Below are positions 42,902 through 53,313 of a DNA stretch of 56,444 nt, in pieces (positions within the stretch are counted from its first letter, which is position 1; the number at the start of each line of letters is the position of its first letter). Below the pieces are notes generated by a model. That model made no database searches, had not been told where the DNA came from, and saw only the letters and a list, made by a program, of their open reading frames with translations. Position numbers and translations under genes: made by a program. The DNA is from an uncultured Pseudomonadota bacterium (lineage in GTDB: Bacteria > Pseudomonadota > Alphaproteobacteria > RF32 > CAG-239). The stretch lies in contig CASDRW010000120.1 in NCBI GenBank assembly GCA_949283275.1, positions 1 through 56,444 on the forward strand. The letters are read 5' to 3'.

Positions 42902-44815
42902 ATGAGCAATAAGGTAATAGGTATAGATTTGGGAACTACAAACTCTTGTTTTGCGGTTATGGAAGGCGGCGAGGCCAAAGTTTTAGAAAACTCCGAGGGT
43001 GCACGCACCACCCCATCAATGGTAGCATTCACCGATACCGAGCGCTTGGTTGGTTTTCCGGCCAAACGTCAGGCCGTAACCAATCCGGAAAACACATTGT
43101 TTGCTATTAAAAGGTTGATTGGTCGTCGTTATGATTCACCCGAGGTTGCCAAAGACAAAGCGCTTGTTCCGTTCAAGATTATCGAGGGAGACAATGGCGA
43201 TGCTTGGGTTGAAGTCAAGGGGCAAAAATATGCTCCGTCGCAAATTTCGGCCATTGTGTTGCAAAAGATAAAAGAATATGCCGAAAGTTATCTTGGCGAA
43301 AAGATAGAAAAAGCAGTTATTACGGTACCGGCATATTTTAATGATTCGCAACGTCAGGCCACTAAAGATGCCGGCAAGATTGCAGGTTTGGATGTTTTGC
43401 GTATCATCAACGAGCCTACCGCTGCCGCGCTTGCTTACGGTTTGGATAAAAAGACCAATGGCACCATTGCGGTTTATGACCTTGGCGGTGGTACGTTTGA
43501 TATCTCGATTTTGGAAATTGGCGACGGCGTATTTGAAGTAAAATCGACCAACGGTGATACTTTCTTGGGTGGTGAAGACTTTGACCAACGTTTGGTAAAC
43601 TATCTTGCCGAAGAGTTTAAGAAAGAATCCGGCATTGATTTGAAGAACGATCGTTTAGCTTTGCAGCGTTTGAAAGAAGCCGCCGAGAAAGCCAAGATTG
43701 AGTTGTCCTCGACCACCCAAACCGAGGTCAACTTGCCGTTTATTACCGCCGATGCAACCGGCCCGAAACACTTAAATATCAAGTTGACCAGAGCCAAATT
43801 AGAATCTTTGGTAGAGGATTTGATAGACAAGACAATTGAGCCTTGCAAAAAAGCCATGGCCGACGCCGGCGTTTCTCCGTCTGACATCAGCGAGGTTATT
43901 TTGGTTGGCGGTATGACCCGTATGCCCAAGGTTCAAGAAAAAGTAAAAGAGATTTTCGGCAAAGAGCCGCACAAAGGTGTAAACCCTGACGAGGTTGTTG
44001 CCGTCGGTGCCGCAATTCAAGGCGGTGTTTTGATGGGCGATGTCAAAGACGTGTTGTTGTTGGATGTAACGCCTCTGTCTTTGGGTATTGAGACCTTGGG
44101 TGGTGTGTTCACTCGTTTGATTGACCGCAACACCACCATTCCGACCCGCAAGTCGCAGGTATTTTCAACCGCCGAGGATGGACAAACGGCAGTTACTATC
44201 AGGGTATTCCAAGGCGAGCGTGAAATGGCTGCCGACAACAAATTGCTTGGCCAGTTTGATTTGGTAGGAATTCCGCCTGCACCGCGTGGTATGCCGCAAA
44301 TAGAGGTAACTTTTGATATTGATGCCAACGGCATTGTAAACGTATCGGCCAAAGATAAAGCCACCAACAAAGAACAAGCTATCAGAATTCAAGCCAGCGG
44401 CGGCCTGTCCGATGCCGATATCGAAAAGATGGTCAAAGATGCCGAAGCCAATGCCGAGGCCGACAAGAAGAAAAAAGAGGTTGTCGAGGCCAAAAACCAA
44501 GCCGAGGCTTTGGTTCACACCACGGAAAAGACCTTGAAAGAAAACGGCGACAAGATTTCTGCCGCCGAAAAAGAGGCTATAGAAAAAGAGCTTAACGCCT
44601 TAAAGACGGCGTTGGAGGCCGATGATTTGTCAGTTATCAAAGAAAAGACCGAAAGCTTAATGCAGGCTTCTCTCAAACTTGGCGAGGCGATGTACAAAGC
44701 TCAGGCAGAAAGCGCCCAAGCTCAAGGAACCACCCAAGGTGCTGACGGCGGTTCATCTTCGGAACAGCCCAAAGATGAAAAGGTAGTCGACGCCGACTTT
44801 GAAGAGGTCAAATAA
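42902..44815 (+). CDS. dnaK: molecular chaperone DnaK (Hsp70)
   Basis: 637 aa ([31 protein letters not shown]-terminal DADFEEVK). Confidence 0.98.
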
Positions 44816-44839: not shown

Positions 44840-44873
44840 AAAGCCTCGCTTCTTTTAAAAAGCGGGGCTTTTG
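44840..44873. terminator. bidirectional intrinsic terminator between dnaK and the convergent J-domain gene
   Basis: Stem AAGCCTCGC / GCGGGGCTT (one G-U pair) with a 12-nt loop. TTTT follows on the + strand, and the flank on the minus strand is T-rich. Confidence 0.6.
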
Positions 44874-44877
44874 TAAA

Positions 44878-47800
44878 TTACCTGGTTTTTTGTTTAGTTG
44901 CCGTTTTTTGCGGACTTGGATTATTATGAGGTCTGGCTGATTTTCCTAAGCTTTTAAGAGTTAATGATGAGCCATCTATGTTATAAACCTTACCTGATGG
45001 CTTTTTATTTTTTCCTGTTTTGGCAGGAGCACGCCCACGATCTTCGGCAGCTTTTAATTTAGCATTTTCGGCATTGTTTTTACCGACGGAGGCAATCATC
45101 ATAAAGGCCAACAAGGTAACATCTTTACTTTCCAGCTTGACATTATCAACAGATAAGTTGGTTTTCCAGATGGTTTCTCTGGTTGTATTAATATGATCAA
45201 TTCCCTTTTTAGTATCGGCAAAACCCTTTGCCTCATCATTAAGAGCAACGTCAAGAGTTATTGATTGTTCAAAAACGTTCCACCTTTCTTCAAGATAGCG
45301 CTCAAAATTCATGTCAGAGCCTTCTTTTTTCCACTCACCGTCCACAAGAGTACGATAGCGCAGCCGTTCAGTTTTATCGGGAGCGATACCATGAACAACT
45401 TTATATTCACGATCCAACAGTTGGTCGATGGAATCAACATGCGCAGGAAGTTGTTTAAGCTCTTTATGAGGGCCAATCTGTTTAGGCTCTTCGTGCTCTG
45501 GAAGTTGTTTAAGCTCTTTATGAGGGCCAATTTGTTTAGGCTCTTTGTGCTCTTCAAGGAACTTATCCTCTTTCTCCGGTTTAGGAGGAGTTGGCGGTAT
45601 AATCGGATCAACTGGCCCAACCGGATCAATCGGCCCTTTTTTGGGTTTTACCATTCTGTCGAGCAAACTCCCCACTCTGTTTTTAAGCTTTTTAACAGGA
45701 TTAATTGTTTTTCCCATTACGCCAAACATACCCAGACCAAGATTTGTTTCATTTCTGACCATTGCGTAGTCATCAACTTTTTCTAAGATATCAACCTCTT
45801 TTAAAGGTATCTTTGGAGTATGGTCATAAGTAGATTCTCTGTCGCCATAAAGCTCACGAATAACTGGTCGGTCTTCTATTCTGGACACGAAGTTATCTTC
45901 ACCCACATGAGGAGCAAGGCTATTATAGGATTTAGCCGCCTCAATATTAACCGAGCCGTCACTATTAAACAGATTTTTCATGGCCTGAACATCTTTAAAA
46001 TCAACATTGTTTTGCTCAGCCCAACTTTGTGTCAAAACGGTATGATTACCGTGGCTGTGAGTTCCGCCCCACAATTCCATATTATCCGGAGCAATCATTC
46101 CGGCATCATGAGAAATCAACAAAGCGTGTCCGGGGTTTTCAACTCCGGCAGCCTGCAAAGCATCAAGTCTTTGTTGTAGCAACTCAGGATTATCTTTGTA
46201 CCAATTATTTTGCAAAAAGCCCTTGGCGTTTTCTTCGATTTTGGCATAATCAACAACAGTATCGGTTCCGACTTTTTCCCAGTGTTCACCGACTTTTTCT
46301 TTGTGTTGGAAAATATTATTATCCTGGTTTTGTTCATTGAAATAATTAATACCCTGATTTGCCGTCCATCTACCGGCAAAACCGGCACCGACGGTAGCAA
46401 CAGTCTGCAATGTAGCCCAACCTGCAGCTTCCCATTTACTCAGACCGGATTTAACAGCATCCTGAGCATTAGATATAATACCGTTTGCCGCCCCCATAGC
46501 CATAGAAGAATAACCAAGTATTTGAGCAACACCAGGGTTTCCGGTTACAGCAAAGCCCAAAGCAGCGGCACCCAAAGCGGTTGTAGCAACGGTCATTACC
46601 ATTCTGCGGTCTTTTAAGAAAGCTTTAAGATTAGCTTTTTGACCGTTTTTCTTACGTTCTTTACGCCAACGTCTTATCTGAAGAGCCGTCATGGTAATAG
46701 CCACAGCAGAGCCTACAGCCAACCCAGCAACTTTATTAAGTCCCAAGGAAGAAGCCGTAATTGAGGCATCGGCAGCAGTTGTAGCGGCGGTTGAGGCTAT
46801 TGTAATAGCACCTGATACGAGGAAAGCCGAGGCAGCACCTTTTGCTGTCCTCTTTAACATCTCGATTCTTACTTTACGTTTATCAACTCCTTTGGTAACA
46901 AAACGATCTTGGGCGCGTTTATCCAAATCTTTTAGATGTTCAAAAACATTTGTTACAATATCATTGTCTTTGCCAACCTTATTTCCCAAACGATGAGCAA
47001 AACCACCCACATTATTAATATTATTGTCTATGCTGGCTTCATAAGCAGAATCCGACACACTAACAGGTTTTCTTATATCGCTTAAAGAAGATATAAAGGT
47101 CTCAAAATATTTTTTGTCGGTAAATTGTTTTGGGTCCTCCAAAATACCTTTTTCTGTTTGGCTTACCACATAAGTAGAGTACAAAACAAAAGGCACCTCA
47201 TCCCTAAGTTTCTCGTCCAAAGCTGATTTTGAAATTTCATCGGCAGATCCCAGCTCATTCATCAAAACATTTTGACGAGCCACTCTGATTATATTTTCGA
47301 GTTTGCTGTTCTCAATGATTTTGCATCCGGCTTCATAGGTAGTACGTTTATTTCCGTCCTTATCAATAAATTGCGGCTCTATATTTCCTTGTTGATCAAG
47401 GAATTGGAAATTACTAACCAGCCTTATTGTCTCATCATCCAAAGATGTCTGAGGCAAAATCTTAGTCAAATCTTCGAAACGTTTATTTAGTTTAGGTTCA
47501 TCATTTTGGGTAACATTGGTTAAATTCCATCCGTCATCATATTGGCTAATCAGCTCATTTAAGACATTACGGTTGGATTGTATCATTGCCAGCTTATTTT
47601 TATCAGCCTCGGTATTGCCGAGAGTTTTTTCTCTGGCCTCAAACATATGCATATATCCGTCATAAGTATCGGCCACGTTTGTAACATCGGCAAAGAAGAG
47701 ATTTTGTTTGCTATAAGCATCTGTAATTAATTGATCTATTTTTTTTTCAAGCCTGGCAATCAACTGTTCCTCAAGCCCATAAGCTTGACTGTCTTTGGGC

Positions 47801-48561
47801 ATGGAGCTCAAAAGACTAAGATGTCTGGCATATTCCTTGGCCAAAATTTCCGGAGGTATAATTTCAAACAATTTCTCATCTTGTAGCATATAAGCAGAGA
47901 TGCGATCTTGGAAATCAGCTAATTCTTTATCATTAAGCTGACGAACATTTTGGATTTTTTCGATTGCGGCATCGGGGCGTTGTATTCCGGCATCATATAT
48001 GTGCTGATTAATAACCCCCATATCCAAAAAGACTTTTAATTTTAAACGATCCATCAAAAACTCGTTTTGATCGGAATTTTGGCTTCTTAAACGGTAACTT
48101 TCGTCTTTGGCTATTTCAGTGGCATGAGTCTTAGTTGTAGCGTTGACTTTAGTCTTAGAGCTGTTTTTTCCGTTTACTTCTTGATTAACTTCTACGGCAT
48201 CAAGCGTTTTTTCTTTAGAGCTTGCTCCTTTGGCGTTTTCCATATATATGTAGTTTTGCAAAGCCACACTATATCCTCTTTTTTCATCTGCGGTAATTTG
48301 CTTGGCATCATATTGCTTGCGTTTTTCTACATCACCCAGAATACTGTAGGCATAAGAAATTTCTTGAAATTTAGCTGTTGTCTCAGGATCATCTTCGGTT
48401 TTATCCGGATGATATTTTCTTGCCAAATCGTAATAATGTTTTTTAATTTCATCATCTGAAGCATCGGAAGAAAGCCCTAAAGAAAGATACAACCAATCAT
48501 TTTGGTGAGCACTAAAAAATTTTTTCTTGTTTTCTTCATCATCATATTCGTTATCAGTCAT
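44878..48561 (-). CDS. giant J-domain membrane protein (N-terminal J domain, hydrophobic hairpins, Pro-rich linker, tandem repeats, basic tail)
   Basis: 1227-aa uninterrupted ORF with AGGAG 7 nt upstream of the ATG. J domain is at residues about 22-88 with HPD at 51-53. Ala/Gly/Thr-rich hydrophobic segments span residues about 575-730. The Pro-rich linker is PIDPVGPVDPIIPPTPPKP, and there are two 18-aa repeats at 1004-1039. Confidence 0.8.
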   Translation of the reverse strand: MTDNEYDDEENKKKFFSAHQNDWLYLSLGLSSDASDDEIKKHYYDLARKYHPDKTEDDPETTAKFQEISYAYSILGDVEKRKQYDAKQITADEKRGYSVALQNYIYMENAKGASSKEKTLDAVEVNQEVNGKNSSKTKVNATTKTHATEIAKDESYRLRSQNSDQNEFLMDRLKLKVFLDMGVINQHIYDAGIQRPDAAIEKIQNVRQLNDKELADFQDRISAYMLQDEKLFEIIPPEILAKEYARHLSLLSSMPKDSQAYGLEEQLIARLEKKIDQLITDAYSKQNLFFADVTNVADTYDGYMHMFEAREKTLGNTEADKNKLAMIQSNRNVLNELISQYDDGWNLTNVTQNDEPKLNKRFEDLTKILPQTSLDDETIRLVSNFQFLDQQGNIEPQFIDKDGNKRTTYEAGCKIIENSKLENIIRVARQNVLMNELGSADEISKSALDEKLRDEVPFVLYSTYVVSQTEKGILEDPKQFTDKKYFETFISSLSDIRKPVSVSDSAYEASIDNNINNVGGFAHRLGNKVGKDNDIVTNVFEHLKDLDKRAQDRFVTKGVDKRKVRIEMLKRTAKGAASAFLVSGAITIASTAATTAADASITASSLGLNKVAGLAVGSAVAITMTALQIRRWRKERKKNGQKANLKAFLKDRRMVMTVATTALGAAALGFAVTGNPGVAQILGYSSMAMGAANGIISNAQDAVKSGLSKWEAAGWATLQTVATVGAGFAGRWTANQGINYFNEQNQDNNIFQHKEKVGEHWEKVGTDTVVDYAKIEENAKGFLQNNWYKDNPELLQQRLDALQAAGVENPGHALLISHDAGMIAPDNMELWGGTHSHGNHTVLTQSWAEQNNVDFKDVQAMKNLFNSDGSVNIEAAKSYNSLAPHVGEDNFVSRIEDRPVIRELYGDRESTYDHTPKIPLKEVDILEKVDDYAMVRNETNLGLGMFGVMGKTINPVKKLKNRVGSLLDRMVKPKKGPIDPVGPVDPIIPPTPPKPEKEDKFLEEHKEPKQIGPHKELKQLPEHEEPKQIGPHKELKQLPAHVDSIDQLLDREYKVVHGIAPDKTERLRYRTLVDGEWKKEGSDMNFERYLEERWNVFEQSITLDVALNDEAKGFADTKKGIDHINTTRETIWKTNLSVDNVKLESKDVTLLAFMMIASVGKNNAENAKLKAAEDRGRAPAKTGKNKKPSGKVYNIDGSSLTLKSLGKSARPHNNPSPQKTATKQKTR
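45446..45553. repeat. 2 x 54-bp in-frame tandem repeat inside the J-domain gene
   Basis: 45446-45499 and 45500-45553 differ at 2 of 54 positions. They encode EHKEPKQIGPHKELKQLP / EHEEPKQIGPHKELKQLP. Confidence 0.9.
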
Positions 48562-48628
48562 TTCTTATCTCCTAAAGAGGCTTTCACAGAGCCTAAAACA
48601 TCAATCATACTTCAAACATACCACATTT

Positions 48629-48655
48629 TTGACACAAAATCAAATTTTTTGTCAA
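48629..48655. promoter_or_regulatory. 27-bp imperfect palindrome carrying back-to-back TTGACA hexamers in the divergent J-gene/dnaJ control region
   Basis: TTGACACAAAAT-CAA-ATTTTTTGTCAA, with 11 of 12 arm positions complementary. Each arm starts with TTGACA reading outward. Confidence 0.3.
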
Positions 48656-48744: not shown

Positions 48745-48776
48745 CTTGCAATTTGTCTGTAATATCCCTAAATAAA
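48745..48776 (+). promoter_or_regulatory. possible RpoH-like promoter for the separated dnaJ
   Basis: CTTG (48745-48748)-N18-CCTAAATAAA (48767-48776). It shares the CTTGCA -35 with the dnaK promoter, and the -10 deviates at the T of CYTAT. It lies about 35 nt upstream of the dnaJ ATG. Confidence 0.35.
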
Positions 48777-48810: not shown

Positions 48811-49959
48811 ATGACCGAAAAAGACTATTACGAGATATTGGAAGTATCAAAGAATGCCAGTGGCGAAGAGATAAAAAAGTCTTTTCGTCGTCTTGCCATG
48901 CAATATCATCCGGATCGCAATCCCGGTGACAAAGTTGCCGAGGCCAAGTTTAAGGAGATTAACGAGGCCTATGAGGTACTAAAAGACGAGCAAAAGCGCG
49001 CTGCCTATGACCGCTATGGACATCAGGCTTTTGCTGCAGGAGGCATGGGCGGCGGCAATCCGTTTGGCGGGTTTAATTTTGATTTTGGCGGTGCGGCCGG
49101 CGGATTTGCCGACATTTTTTCCGAGGTTTTTTCCGAATTTATGGGCGGAGGCCGCGGCCGCAAACAAAGCTATGCCCAAAGGGGGCAAGATATCCGCTAT
49201 AATTTATCCATAAGTCTTGAAGAGGCATTTAGCGGGATAGAAAAAGAGATAAAATTTCCCTCTACCCAAACTTGCGAAACCTGCCACGGTCACGGCACCA
49301 AAGACGGCAAAGAAGCTCCGGTTTGCCCGCATTGCAACGGCACCGGCAAAATTCGTTTGCAACAAGGTTTTTTTGTGGTTGAGCAGTCCTGTCCGCAATG
49401 CAAAGGGACGGGGCATTTGGTTAAAGAGGCTTGTCCTGATTGCAAGGGCAAAGGGTTTATCAACCAAGAAAAAATCATCAAAGTCAAGATACCGGCAGGC
49501 ATTGAAGATGGCACTCGTATGCGTATTGAGGGCGCCGGCGAGGCAGGCACCAGAGGCGGGGCCAACGGTGATTTGTATGTATTTATAACAGTTAAAGAGC
49601 ACAAGCTCTATGAGCGTGACGGAGCCAATTTATATACTCGCATCCCTATTTCGATGTGTTGTGCGGCCCTAGGCGGGCAGATAGAAATTCCTTCAATAGA
49701 TGGTTCCAAGCTTGATGTCGAGATAAAACCCGGTTCGCAGTCAGATCAAGTGGTCAAGGTCAAAGGTCAAGGCATGACGATGGTTCGATCCGAAAAGCGC
49801 GGAGATTTATTTGTCAAATTGCGGGTTGAAACGCCGGTTAATTTATCGGCGCGTCAAAAAGAGCTTTTGGAGGAATTTCGAAGCATAAGCAAAGAAGATT
49901 CCTGCCAGCCGGAATCCAAGAGCTTTTTTGACAAAATAAAAGATTTATTTGCGGCTTAA
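48811..49959 (+). CDS. dnaJ: molecular chaperone DnaJ (type I)
   Basis: 382 aa with a J domain ([13 protein letters not shown]...YHPDRNPGD), a G/F region, four CxxCxGxG zinc-finger motifs and C-terminal domains. Confidence 0.97.
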
Positions 49960-50038: not shown

Positions 50039-50950
50039 ATGCCTTTGGCTAGTGTTAGCAACAAAGTAGACGGTGTTGCCGGCTGGGACAAAACGGTAGC
50101 CGACGTTAATAATATTGACGAAACCTTTGCCAACGCAAGGGATCTTGGTTATGCGCGCCTTAACAATTCGCGTATATCGGTAATCGGCAATCTTGGCAAA
50201 TACGACAACAAAGATATGTACATGGTTCAGGTACAATCTAATGGTAAGTTGTTTATTAATTTGCGCACCGGCGATTCGACCGATGATGAAAAAGTCCTTG
50301 ATTTGTCCAAGTACGACCAAAGGCTCAACGAAATTAAAGCCGAGATGGAGGCGTTGGGCATCAAAACGGAGGAAGAAGAGGTTGTTGATACTACTCCCAA
50401 AACTCCGCTAGAGATAGCCAGGGCAGAAGTTCAAAAAATGAAAGAAGAACGTGAAAAAGCGCAAGCGGGATTGCTTGACGATATTGCACCCGGCATGACT
50501 ATCAAGGTTTATATGCAAAAAGGCAACCGCACGATTTGTATCGGCGATTCGACGGCAGATAAAAATTCCGAAGAATATGCCACCATGAAATCAATTCTTT
50601 CCGGCGAATACAAGGCCAAAAAAGGACAATATTATATCGAAATTGGCTCCGAAGATGAGACCTTGCGCGAGAACACCCCCTATGTTATGCAAATTAAACA
50701 AGGCACCAAATACATTAATGACTATTTGGTAACCGAAACAGAGTCTGAAGACAGCAAAAACGAAAAGATATCGCTTACCTCAAGCACCTCATCATCGGAG
50801 TATATTTCATCGGCTTATGCCGCACAAATACAGGCGCAAAAATATGAAGCCACCGCCAACATGATGGTTGATGCCTATACCAACCTGGCCTCAATCCGTA
50901 ACAAGCAAAGTGGTGCGACCAAACTGTTTTCCACCTTGTTAAACATTTAA
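50039..50950 (+). CDS. hypothetical protein, probably co-transcribed with dnaJ
   Basis: 303-aa ORF with AAGGAG 7 nt upstream. I found no terminator in the 79-nt gap after dnaJ. It has a central Glu/Lys-rich helix and a Ser-rich stretch, with no motif recognised. Confidence 0.55.
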   Translation: MPLASVSNKVDGVAGWDKTVADVNNIDETFANARDLGYARLNNSRISVIGNLGKYDNKDMYMVQVQSNGKLFINLRTGDSTDDEKVLDLSKYDQRLNEIKAEMEALGIKTEEEEVVDTTPKTPLEIARAEVQKMKEEREKAQAGLLDDIAPGMTIKVYMQKGNRTICIGDSTADKNSEEYATMKSILSGEYKAKKGQYYIEIGSEDETLRENTPYVMQIKQGTKYINDYLVTETESEDSKNEKISLTSSTSSSEYISSAYAAQIQAQKYEATANMMVDAYTNLASIRNKQSGATKLFSTLLNI

Positions 50951-51000: not shown

Positions 51001-52872
51001 TTAATAAAATAAAGTAAGAATACTTCTGGCTGATAGCGAGGCGAGCGAGAGGGAGTTAATCGCCAGTTGTTGGCGAGTTTGGAGCGATAAGTATTGGGCT
51101 GAGGCCTCGTTCATGTCGGCAAGCGTCAAATCATCCGCTCCGGTTTCCAAGACATCAGTTAAAGCCTCAGTAAAGTTAATCCTTGTCGTGATGACGGAAT
51201 ATTGGTTGCCCAAACTTTCGGCCAGAGAGCGCAAAGTGGTGATAGAGAGATTGAGTTGATTTATCGCTTCTTCAATATCGCCTTGAGTTTGCCACAAAGC
51301 CTCGTTGATATTAAGCGCCTTGCTGGTGATATCTTGGCCCAAGACATTAAAGACATGCTTTCTGTTTTCATCAAACACCACTTTGAGGTTGCCGCCTTTG
51401 AGTAAATTTATGCCCTGATATGAGCAATCGGATAATAACTTGTCATATTCTTTGATGATTTGGTCAAATTGCTGATATTTATCTTTGGTATCATTATCAT
51501 TTTCAATATGGAAAAACTTATCCATTTCTTCATCAATATCTGGAATAGCAGGGGCAATTTTATTGGTTAATATAAATGATTGTGGTGGAGTATTGGTATC
51601 ATCAAGGTATTCTGCAGAATCCATATCGTATGAACATTCATAATATTGATTATTAATAATCATAGATACTCCTGCTTTAGATATTAAATTGCTATCATAA
51701 AATGTATTTACATTTGTCATTGTTGGGCTATTTCCATTAATAACAACTTGAGACGAATTCAAAAAAGCATCAGTCTCTTCAAACAATACACCTACATAAT
51801 TTGCTTTATAATTAACTCGGCTTTGATTTTCCATCACAAGTTTTGTCGCCACAAAAGCATTGCCTTTATAACCATTCGACATCATATTAAAAATACTGTT
51901 ACCTCTCATTACGACATTTGCATAACAAAACCCATGACCATATTGAGCGTTAGTTTCAATATTAAGTTTGGTCCCATCCTCAATAATAAATGTTGCACTA
52001 TTTTCATAATTTCCCGGATCAGTTTTAATTTTTCCGATAAAGCCGCGGCTATACATACTGTTTGAATTAACTCCGTCATTAATATTCACCGGACTATTAT
52101 CATGAATGTTAATTATACCTTTTAAAATTACTTCTACACTGTTTCCTTCGGCATAAACTCCGGCAATAGCATCATTTGTAGGTAATGAATTGGTCATATC
52201 AAAATTAATATCCAAATTTTGTAAAACAACATTTGTCGAGCCAGATGAAACTTGTATTACTCCCGCATATCCTCCGGATATTTTGCTATCAGTAGTATAA
52301 TTAAGTTGCAAATCAGAAACCATTGCTCCATCGCCGACAATTAGTCCTGAAGCTCCAACTCCTTTAAAGGTAAAAGTCAAAGATGAAGTTTTCCCAGTGC
52401 CAAAATAATTACTTCCGACTAACGACTGTCCTTTTCCTAAAATAATTGATTCGTTTTCTGATAAAGTTATATCTCCGTCAATTACAATCAAACCGGATTT
52501 TCCTGATTGAATCGCAGCCAATAGTTCGTCCTCGGTTGTAACTCGGGCGACAATTTCTTCTTCTGCTTTTTCTAGGGCCGAATTGGCAACAGCTTGGGCT
52601 TGTTCCAACAAGGTAATGGCTTTTTCGATACCGACATTAGCTGCTTCAATGGTTTGGATGCCTTGTCCCATGCTGTCCAACAACGCGGTCAAATCCGCCG
52701 CGCGGTTGGTGAGCGAGCGGGCTTGATAATAAGAGCTTGCGTTGTCGATGGCTGAGTTTACCTTTTTGCCGGTGGCAAGAATAAGCTGGGTCTTGTCCAT
52801 TTGGGTGGCAATGTTTTTAAGGCTCAAGAGATTGCTACGCATTGAGGCATTGAGAGTTATGCTATTACTCAT
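51001..52872 (-). CDS. flagellin (Caulobacter-type termini) with a large beta-helix-like central insert
   Basis: 623 aa. The N-terminus is ...ILATGKKVNSAIDNASSYYQARS.... The C-terminus is ...YQGINLLKGG...LGNQYSVITTRINFTEALTDVLETGADDLTLADMNEASAQYLSLQTRQQLA.... AGGAGG lies 5 nt upstream of the ATG. Confidence 0.9.
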   Translation of the reverse strand: MSNSITLNASMRSNLLSLKNIATQMDKTQLILATGKKVNSAIDNASSYYQARSLTNRAADLTALLDSMGQGIQTIEAANVGIEKAITLLEQAQAVANSALEKAEEEIVARVTTEDELLAAIQSGKSGLIVIDGDITLSENESIILGKGQSLVGSNYFGTGKTSSLTFTFKGVGASGLIVGDGAMVSDLQLNYTTDSKISGGYAGVIQVSSGSTNVVLQNLDINFDMTNSLPTNDAIAGVYAEGNSVEVILKGIINIHDNSPVNINDGVNSNSMYSRGFIGKIKTDPGNYENSATFIIEDGTKLNIETNAQYGHGFCYANVVMRGNSIFNMMSNGYKGNAFVATKLVMENQSRVNYKANYVGVLFEETDAFLNSSQVVINGNSPTMTNVNTFYDSNLISKAGVSMIINNQYYECSYDMDSAEYLDDTNTPPQSFILTNKIAPAIPDIDEEMDKFFHIENDNDTKDKYQQFDQIIKEYDKLLSDCSYQGINLLKGGNLKVVFDENRKHVFNVLGQDITSKALNINEALWQTQGDIEEAINQLNLSITTLRSLAESLGNQYSVITTRINFTEALTDVLETGADDLTLADMNEASAQYLSLQTRQQLAINSLSLASLSARSILTLFY

Positions 52873-53236: not shown

Positions 53237-53313
53237 TGGCGCGCCCGGCGGGATTCGAACTCACAACCTTCTGATCCGTAGTCAGATGCTCTATCCAATT
53301 GAGCTACGGGCGC
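53237..53313 (-). tRNA. tRNA-Arg (anticodon ACG), CCA encoded
   Basis: Hand-folded as GCGCCCG-TA-GCTC-AATTGGATA-GAGC-A-TCTGA-CTACGGA-TCAGA-AGGTT-GTGAG-TTCGAAT-CCCGC-CGGGCGC-G-CCA. The acceptor, D and anticodon stems are perfect. The T-stem has one G-U pair and one A-C mismatch. Confidence 0.92.

Follow-up and report, generated by a model that had tools for sequence, protein, structure and literature searches.

What a very large J-domain protein might do when its gene lies in antisense between dnaK and dnaJ is the question raised by a locus in contig CASDRW010000120.1 of an uncultured alphaproteobacterium (assembly GCA_949283275.1; GTDB lineage RF32, CAG-239), analyzed here over a stretch of 56,444 nucleotides (nt), positions 1–56,444 (hereafter, the window). 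The open reading frame (ORF) in question, complete and 1227 amino acids (aa) long (positions 44878–48561, minus strand), encodes a predicted class C J-domain protein, in which a J domain is joined to the conserved body of a family made up of hypothetical proteins. The explanation that we prefer, at a probability of roughly one half, is a class C co-chaperone fusion, specific to this lineage, that recruits the cell's own DnaK to the ORF product.

The ORF is a real gene. It occupies the 3995-bp gap between dnaK (42902–44815, plus strand; Pfam PF00012, 934 bits) and the class A dnaJ (48811–49959, plus strand; in which Pfam recognizes a J domain, a zinc finger, and DnaJ_C). The leader on the minus strand (48569–48593) contains an AGGAG ribosome-binding site (48569–48573) 7 nt before the ATG and, further upstream, a hairpin of the 5′ untranslated region (48579–48593), and a bidirectional hairpin terminator (44843–44872) separates the ORF from the convergent dnaK. 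An earlier note on this DNA had described a minus-strand ORF of this length between dnaK and dnaJ with a good ribosome-binding site, and the coordinates, the gap, and the ribosome-binding site have all been verified. Three independent assemblies (the window and the loci L007 and L055) carry the fused ORF in intact form, and the ratio of nonsynonymous to synonymous substitution rates (dN/dS) for the whole gene in comparison with the conspecific strain L055 equals 0.20, which indicates purifying selection; outside the J domain, it is 0.18–0.20.

The earlier note also contrasted the low GC content of the ORF with that of dnaK. This contrast has to be reversed, as the ORF (39.6%) is close to the window mean (41.1%), and it is dnaK and dnaJ that deviate (47.4–47.5%); hence, the composition gives no indication of a foreign origin, an idea rejected on this count, the ORF being native in its GC content. 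A separate observation from the comparison with L055 concerns the segment 48210–49110 of the window, where the nucleotide identity, taken per 300 nt, is mosaic (88–99%): it is 88% at the 5′ end of dnaJ (dS of dnaJ 0.36) and mostly 97–99% in the ORF (dS 0.087), which suggests recombination tracts within the species.

The J domain covers residues 24–85 (48307–48492, minus strand; Pfam PF00226, 79 bits with the cut-off of 27.8), close to the canonical J domain that had been recognized at approximately residues 22–88. Its HPD signature, His51-Pro52-Asp53 (nt 48403–48411), is situated in the loop that joins helices II and III, and the equivalents of Tyr25 and Phe47 of the Escherichia coli DnaJ are retained. 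Neither Pfam nor NCBIfam yields a match to the G/F region, the zinc finger (PF00684), or DnaJ_C (PF01556) in the ORF, as the earlier reading had it, and the NCBIfam models for DnaJ and CbpA cover the J domain alone (36–68 bits vs. cut-offs of 291–619). The architecture predicted for the ORF product is that of a class C (type III) J-protein. Proteins of this class share just the J domain with other J-proteins, and their proposed role is to bring particular substrates to Hsp70 or to localize Hsp70 (PMC3486835).

The body of the protein, by comparison, has numerous relatives. The first search produced 23 clusters at 90% identity (E=0 to 1e-39, 24–46% identity over residues ~150–1227), all of them hypothetical proteins from metagenome-assembled genomes (MAGs) of Alphaproteobacteria, with P0001, a 96%-identical twin of the ORF product, being the sole cluster with a precomputed J-domain match. 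A profile search enlarged the family to 76 clusters at 90% identity, and a hidden Markov model (HMM) scan of 1.84 billion representatives retrieved 231 relatives at 50% identity, again all hypothetical proteins. Family members are ~1,050–1,400 aa long, and among the GTDB species genomes they are present in 48 MAGs; the hosts are human (Hadza, Brazilian), ruminant, chicken (Ca. Scatocola), horse (Ca. Enterousia), and termite guts. The family diverges fast, with 25–50% identity between members vs. 86–97% for DnaK and 65–81% for DnaJ, and the motifs that define it (ADxTNxADxYDGY, ATGNPG, HDAG...GNHxVL, and KKLKxRxGxLxDK) are all present in the body of the ORF product.

The homology begins at approximately residue 150 (RxRSxNSDxNEF), and in the alignment the homologues show no relationship to the J domain at their N-termini; moreover, a J-domain HMM applied without filters to 217 family sequences matched P0001 only. 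Among the members checked, the J domain is a one-species addition to a conserved family that otherwise lacks it. The HPD signature is kept in the window, L007, and L055/P0001 sequences, and so the question of the earlier note, whether it is conserved in relatives, has a positive answer for these three conspecific sequences and a negative one for the other homologues, from which the J domain is missing.

No annotation could be transferred to the body. Searches of Pfam, NCBIfam, PHROGs, and PADLOC and a sequence profile search of PDB gave no match for it, and neither a permissive Pfam scan of 22 family members nor separate Pfam scans of the long-headed members and of partial-match proteins detected a Pfam domain; a weak EAD9 match (14.5 bits), observed in a single lineage inside the conserved N-domain, was dismissed. 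Relatives were not found in viral contigs of IMG/VR, phage genomes of INPHARED, or plasmids of PLSDB. In literature searches, we came across no description of the family and no mention of a gene retained between dnaK and dnaJ. The family is closed and clade-restricted, confined to MAGs of gut and termite Alphaproteobacteria, and the claim that no described family has such an architecture holds, since the sequence, fold, and literature searches were all empty for the body.

The most persistent neighbor of the family gene is dnaJ (19 out of 49 loci, always at position −1 and divergent), and dnaK is found near it in 17 out of 49 loci. Four J-less members (P0006, P0014, P0069, and P0078), two of which, P0069 and P0078, are the closest J-less relatives, have the identical order dnaJ(−)/gene(+)/dnaK(−); thus, related genomes do carry an ORF between dnaK and dnaJ, as the earlier note had asked. 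On the neighbor-joining tree of the family, the linkage with dnaJ is observed in the deep branches L045–L050 (~25% identity), in L030, in L027, and in the crown clade of the window, and has been lost several times, in particular in L008, which is sister to the lineage of the window, while the J fusion is limited to the tip formed by the window and L007. As J-less relatives hold the same position and the fusion is found only at the tip, the fusion occurred in situ, in a gene already situated between the chaperone genes. The position by dnaJ and dnaK is, as judged from the tree, older than the J domain.

Other neighbors are of little help in assigning a function, being housekeeping genes: those encoding a thymidine-phosphorylase-like protein, a NUDIX-ASCH protein, a ROK kinase, AnmK, and the CCA-adding enzyme. 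In the clade not linked to dnaJ (L014, L019–L029), NUDIX-ASCH is located upstream, and a ROK-family kinase/regulator and AnmK (anhydro-MurNAc kinase), both cell-wall recycling genes, downstream. Taken as a whole, a chromosomal family with core housekeeping neighbors is consistent with vertical inheritance.

Several visibly different types of N-terminal heads are seen in the alignments of the family, and head replacement appears to be common in it. The commonest head of the homologues, ...YFPGKKYxELSxEDKAF..., is aligned by MAFFT to ...KYHPDK...AKF..., so that decayed J domains were considered as its origin. This has been ruled out, since hhalign of the commonest head against the J-domain profile reproduced the same register but gave it no support (P=0.086 over 22 columns), and its AlphaFold2 (AF2) model is a seven-helix bundle (predicted local distance difference test score, pLDDT, 87; predicted template modeling score, pTM, 0.79) that matched no J-domain structure in PDB. 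Because neither hhalign nor the head model shows kinship with J domains, the J domain must have replaced an unrelated head.

The source of the J domain is not the adjacent dnaJ. An inverted duplication of the dnaJ 5′ end has been ruled out, as the fused J domain and that of the cell's own DnaJ are only 48% identical, and the DnaJ J domains of the clade are 80–91% identical to each other and 70–74% to that of the E. coli DnaJ. The best J-domain matches among 5.8 billion proteins have just 55–60% identity. The nearest J domain found (63% identity) belongs to a CbpA-like protein (J domain and DnaJ_C, 295 aa; L009:13374–14258, minus strand) from the related MAG L009, where its gene is located a few kb from dnaK; the signature LARKYHPD...ILGD.EKRK.YD is common to both proteins. 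No cbpA-like gene was found within the 56-kb window. Within the clade, a class B J-protein would be the most plausible donor. The fused J domain is of the bacterial type.

The anatomy of the body was derived from the AF2 model of residues 151–1227 (61-sequence alignment, mean pLDDT 75.5); all coordinates in this paragraph refer to the minus strand. The J domain is followed by a polar linker (residues 86–150, 48112–48306), which has no counterpart in the homologue alignment, and by the conserved all-alpha N-domain (residues 151–560, 46882–48111), which contains the invariant ADxTNxADxYDGY and is modeled with pLDDT ~90 at residues ~170–550. Then come an Ala/Gly/Thr-rich region of five helices (residues 561–744, 46330–46881), candidate membrane hairpins with polybasic flanks, and a conserved post-helix domain (residues 745–970, 45652–46329) with nearly invariant His818-Asp819 and Asn839-His840 (nt 46042–46110); in the AF2 model, the conserved domain is seen at residues ~750–890, and the post-helix segment terminates in LGLGMFG and a basic amphipathic segment. 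A disordered Pro-rich spacer (residues 971–1045, 45427–45651, pLDDT <50) with two 18-aa repeats precedes the C-terminal helical domain (residues 1046–1160, 45082–45426), which has the EYKIVHG motif, and a Lys/Arg-rich tail (residues 1161–1227, 44881–45081) with a net charge of +13 over the last 60 aa. The repeats, already described in the earlier note, were confirmed by Tandem Repeats Finder (54-nt period, 2.0 copies, 96% matches at 45446–45553), and the RRWRKERKK and GGTHSHGNH strings mentioned in the same note were located in the ORF, as were its Pro-rich linker and basic tail. The Pro-rich repeats differ in length between conspecifics, the L007 protein being 9 aa shorter (1218 vs. 1227 aa), and the spacer varies widely across the family in both length and repeats (KP-, EP-, and HEETKGLP-type). 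A function could not be suggested from the fold: Foldseek of the body model against PDB and BFVD returned nothing at E≤0.001, the best PDB match having E=0.2 and the best BFVD match, a tape-measure protein, E=0.036 with probability 0.18.

The five-helix region deserves separate consideration. The four hydrophobic stretches in two pairs that were described earlier do not stand as such, AF2 yielding at residues 561–744 five long helices that are weakly hydrophobic: their Kyte–Doolittle maxima (19-aa window) are 0.9–1.8, and the summed free energies of membrane insertion on the Hessa scale (dG) are +1.2 to +6.6 kcal/mol, with family medians of +2.3 to +6.5, vs. −1.4 to −6.8 for the transmembrane (TM) segments in other proteins of the window. 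At the same time, the dN/dS of this region in comparison with L055 is 0.05, the lowest in the gene. Helix 1 is preceded by KRKVRIEMLKR, and RRWRKERKK...KDRR lies between helices 2 and 3 (RRWRKERKK at nt 46648–46674); under the positive-inside rule, such basic flanks fit an N-terminus and a loop 2 that both lie in the cytoplasm. A membrane association of the body is plausible on these grounds.

The same features could be explained by an amphitropic body that forms pores or remodels membranes, with the J domain, in this species, recruiting DnaK only to keep it soluble or to unfold it toward insertion or export. Colicin pore domains, ClyA-type toxins, and segments of phage tape-measure proteins provide likenesses for a conditional insertion of hairpins, which would agree with the positive insertion dG of all five helices, the strongest constraint in the gene being on this region, and the polybasic flanks of the hairpins; non-significant structural echoes of the tape-measure protein (E=0.036) and of two alpha-pore-forming toxins, SmhB and NheA (E ~1–3), point in the same direction. 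However, none of the structure or sequence matches reaches significance, the gene has no conserved neighbor resembling an immunity or partner gene, no phage context was found, and there is neither a signal peptide nor evidence of a secretion system, so we consider a pore-forming role improbable.

The second alternative, proposed in the earlier note, is that of a translocated effector, exported, e.g., via its basic C-terminus by a type IV secretion system (T4SS), inserted by its hairpins into a host membrane, and recruiting there the eukaryotic Hsp70. Some features are in line with this: the tail has a charge of +13 over the last 60 aa, weakly hydrophobic hairpins would suit a protein that is first soluble and inserted later, the family evolves fast in comparison with DnaK (25–50% vs. 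86–97% identity), the spacer is formed by Pro-rich repeats, and the hosts are gut-associated. Yet in the family the charge of the last 60 aa has the median of +4 and the range from −3 to +8, so that the very basic tail is peculiar to this ORF and not a family trait, and the J domain, absent from all homologues, cannot define the family role; it is moreover of the bacterial type, with the CbpA-like protein of a related MAG as its nearest match. The gene is chromosomal, of native composition, and has housekeeping neighbors, relatives in mobile elements have not been found, the 56-kb window contains no secretion-system genes (T4SS included), and the flagellin-like protein in the window would fit an extracellular lifestyle only if the bacteria are motile lumen dwellers. 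With the native context, the type of the J domain, the tail, and the mobile-element searches all disfavoring it, a translocated effector is a very improbable identity for this protein.

Two kinds of known effectors were compared with the ORF product. HopI1, reportedly a secreted effector of Pseudomonas syringae, combines a J domain with Pro-rich repeats, as does the ORF product. In HopI1, however, the J domain is C-terminal, a type III secretion signal is present, and the protein is a part of a pathogen effector repertoire, whereas the J domain of the ORF is N-terminal and of bacterial type, and the ORF is native to the chromosome and surrounded by housekeeping genes, with no secretion system in the 56-kb window. 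Chlamydial Inc proteins resemble the ORF product in having paired hydrophobic helices with a tight turn between them. Inc hairpins are strongly hydrophobic and Inc proteins are type III-dependent, in contrast to the Ala/Gly/Thr-rich helices with positive predicted dG seen here, and no sequence or fold similarity of the ORF to Inc proteins was detected; the analogy drawn with them in the earlier note is thus weak because the helices are marginally hydrophobic.

The promoters bear on whether the ORF is regulated together with the chaperone genes. A candidate promoter of the ORF (48615–48655, minus strand) consists of a dyad, TTGACAAAAAATTTGATTTTGTGTCAA (48629–48655), around the −35-like TTGATT, and an extended −10 box, TGGTATGTT (48615–48623). 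The element GACAAAA is found in the 160 nt preceding the family gene in ~38 out of 49 loci, with a background of 0.047 per 160 nt; it is present irrespective of the adjacency of dnaJ, and often forms the dyad GACAAA-N3-13-TTTGTC. In its strict form, the dyad was found in nine copies upstream of the gene and in two copies elsewhere, both inside ORFs, in 662 kb. A regulon could not be derived from this site, as neither the 662 kb of loci nor the window contains a further intergenic copy; the family gene has in it a conserved candidate operator of its own. A heat-shock promoter for the ORF was also sought and rejected, no conserved sigma32 element being present on the ORF side of the intergenic region. 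On the other side, a sigma32-like promoter of dnaJ (48745–48773, plus strand), CTTGCA-N15-CCCTAAAT, represents the pattern CTTGC-N15-17-CC(C)TAAAT, which is kept in most dnaJ-linked loci, ~60–70 nt before the dnaJ ATG where measured, and resembles the alphaproteobacterial sigma32 consensus. Hence dnaJ, split from dnaK, appears to have its own heat-shock-type promoter, and the locus shows a way in which the classic dnaK–dnaJ operon could be split, dnaJ gaining such a promoter.

Taking all this into account, the recruitment of the cell's own DnaK by the fused J domain can be outlined as follows. The family gene was already situated between dnaK and dnaJ when, in this one species, its head was swapped in situ for an HPD-bearing J domain. 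The N-terminus is acidic and has no signal peptide, and so the J domain would remain in the cytoplasm and should face the compartment where DnaK is found. There, it would dock the cell's own DnaK-ATP and trigger ATP hydrolysis, upon which DnaK may clamp nearby segments of the ORF product or partners that assemble on this protein at the membrane. With its 65 residues, the linker would allow the J domain to load DnaK either onto its own body or onto such membrane partners. The basic-flanked hydrophobic helices resemble the classic DnaK-binding motif. The outcome would be a self-delivering DnaK client or a membrane-localized DnaK recruiter. In this form, the co-chaperone part of the earlier proposal, a membrane-tethered specialized co-chaperone, survives with modifications, and its tethering part is weakened by the marginal hydrophobicity of the helices.

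Several known proteins offer partial precedents for such a recruiter. DjlA, the E. coli example of class C, may bring DnaK to the inner membrane (PMC3486835), and, as in the ORF product, its J domain is accompanied by neither the G/F region, nor the zinc finger, nor DnaJ_C. However, DjlA is ~270 aa long, with a single TM helix at the N-terminus and the J domain at the C-terminus, whereas the J domain of the 1227-aa ORF product is N-terminal, and the NCBIfam DjlA model NF006948 scores 14.5 bits against the ORF with the cut-off of 162. TopJ, involved in the assembly of the terminal organelle in Mycoplasma, is similar in layout, with an N-terminal J domain, a long non-DnaJ body, and acidic and Pro-rich stretches, and illustrates a class C J-protein devoted to one cellular structure; still, its lineage is unrelated, a region of hydrophobic hairpins is missing from it, and the similarity is confined to the J domain, the TopJ models NF037946 and TIGR03835 scoring 53 bits (cut-off 300) and 45 bits (cut-off 512), respectively. 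In Rki from phage RB43 and AtcJ from Shewanella, a J domain is combined with a unique module that aims DnaK at one task (PMC3486835, PMC6715715), but both are small and soluble, unlike the ORF product, which is very large, probably membrane-associated, and has widespread J-less orthologues.

A number of observations weigh against DnaK recruitment as outlined above. The linkage with dnaK and dnaJ may represent inherited gene order and not functional coupling; as unrelated genes are likewise syntenic, e.g., the thymidine-phosphorylase-like gene in 13 loci, it is only moderate evidence of such coupling. The promoter of the ORF is of the sigma70 type with its own dyad, unlike the sigma32 type at dnaJ. 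With the dG values given above, the helices are too weak for classical TM segments, so that tethering to the membrane is a tentative proposal; four or five spans are possible, and if the fifth helix does span the membrane, the C-terminal half would be periplasmic. In the J domain itself, the equivalent of Lys26 of the E. coli DnaJ, a contact residue, is Tyr. The other family members do without a J domain, and so the fusion is possibly dispensable. Finally, the comparison with L055 shows eight nonsynonymous and three synonymous substitutions in the fused J domain, dN/dS being ~0.64, which is indistinguishable from neutral evolution.

The latter observation, set against dN/dS of 0.18–0.20 for the rest of the gene, is also an argument for a third alternative, namely, that the J domain is a recent, nearly neutral capture of a piece of some J-protein gene, and the protein works like its J-less relatives, with little or no dependence on DnaK. 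The fusion at one species-level tip, sister lineages having no J domain, and the variety of head types, with head turnover looking common in the family, agree with it as well. Set against this are the intact HPD and core J positions in all three sequences, the substitutions being at surface and loop positions, and the Pfam score, which is far over the threshold; besides, if meaningless, the joining of a J domain to a gene already located between dnaK and dnaJ would be a striking coincidence. We regard a neutral capture as a serious rival, though rather unlikely.

Beyond this single protein, the fusion might serve as a Rosetta stone for the whole family, which would then be an Hsp70-dependent membrane device of gut Alphaproteobacteria; this extension is tentative and, on balance, doubtful. 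Were it true, family members would be obligate clients of DnaK/DnaJ, or else would form a machine driven by DnaK that inserts into or remodels membranes, with the J function given in trans by DnaJ elsewhere and built in here, which would explain why the gene is kept head-to-head with dnaJ, and usually by dnaK, down to ~25% identity. Class C J-proteins aim Hsp70 at particular jobs, and bacterial cases with a defined target are few. The fusion is also the sole functional handle on ~230 clusters of hypothetical proteins, and provides for them a testable hypothesis, the dependence on DnaK.

Among other features of the window, dnaJ is followed by a gene for a 303-aa protein without a Pfam match (50039–50950, plus strand), and in L001 and L055 a gene for a 302–303-aa protein, likewise without a Pfam match, occupies the equivalent position after dnaJ. 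Next to it in the window lies a gene for a 623-aa protein with the flagellin N-terminal domain (51001–52872, minus strand), and a single tRNA gene (53240–53313, minus strand) is the only Rfam match in the window. The window also encodes a Lon-like protease of 811 aa (26966–29401, minus strand) with AAA_32, LonC_helical, and Lon_C domains; it is of the LonB/LonC type, believed to be uncommon in Alphaproteobacteria.

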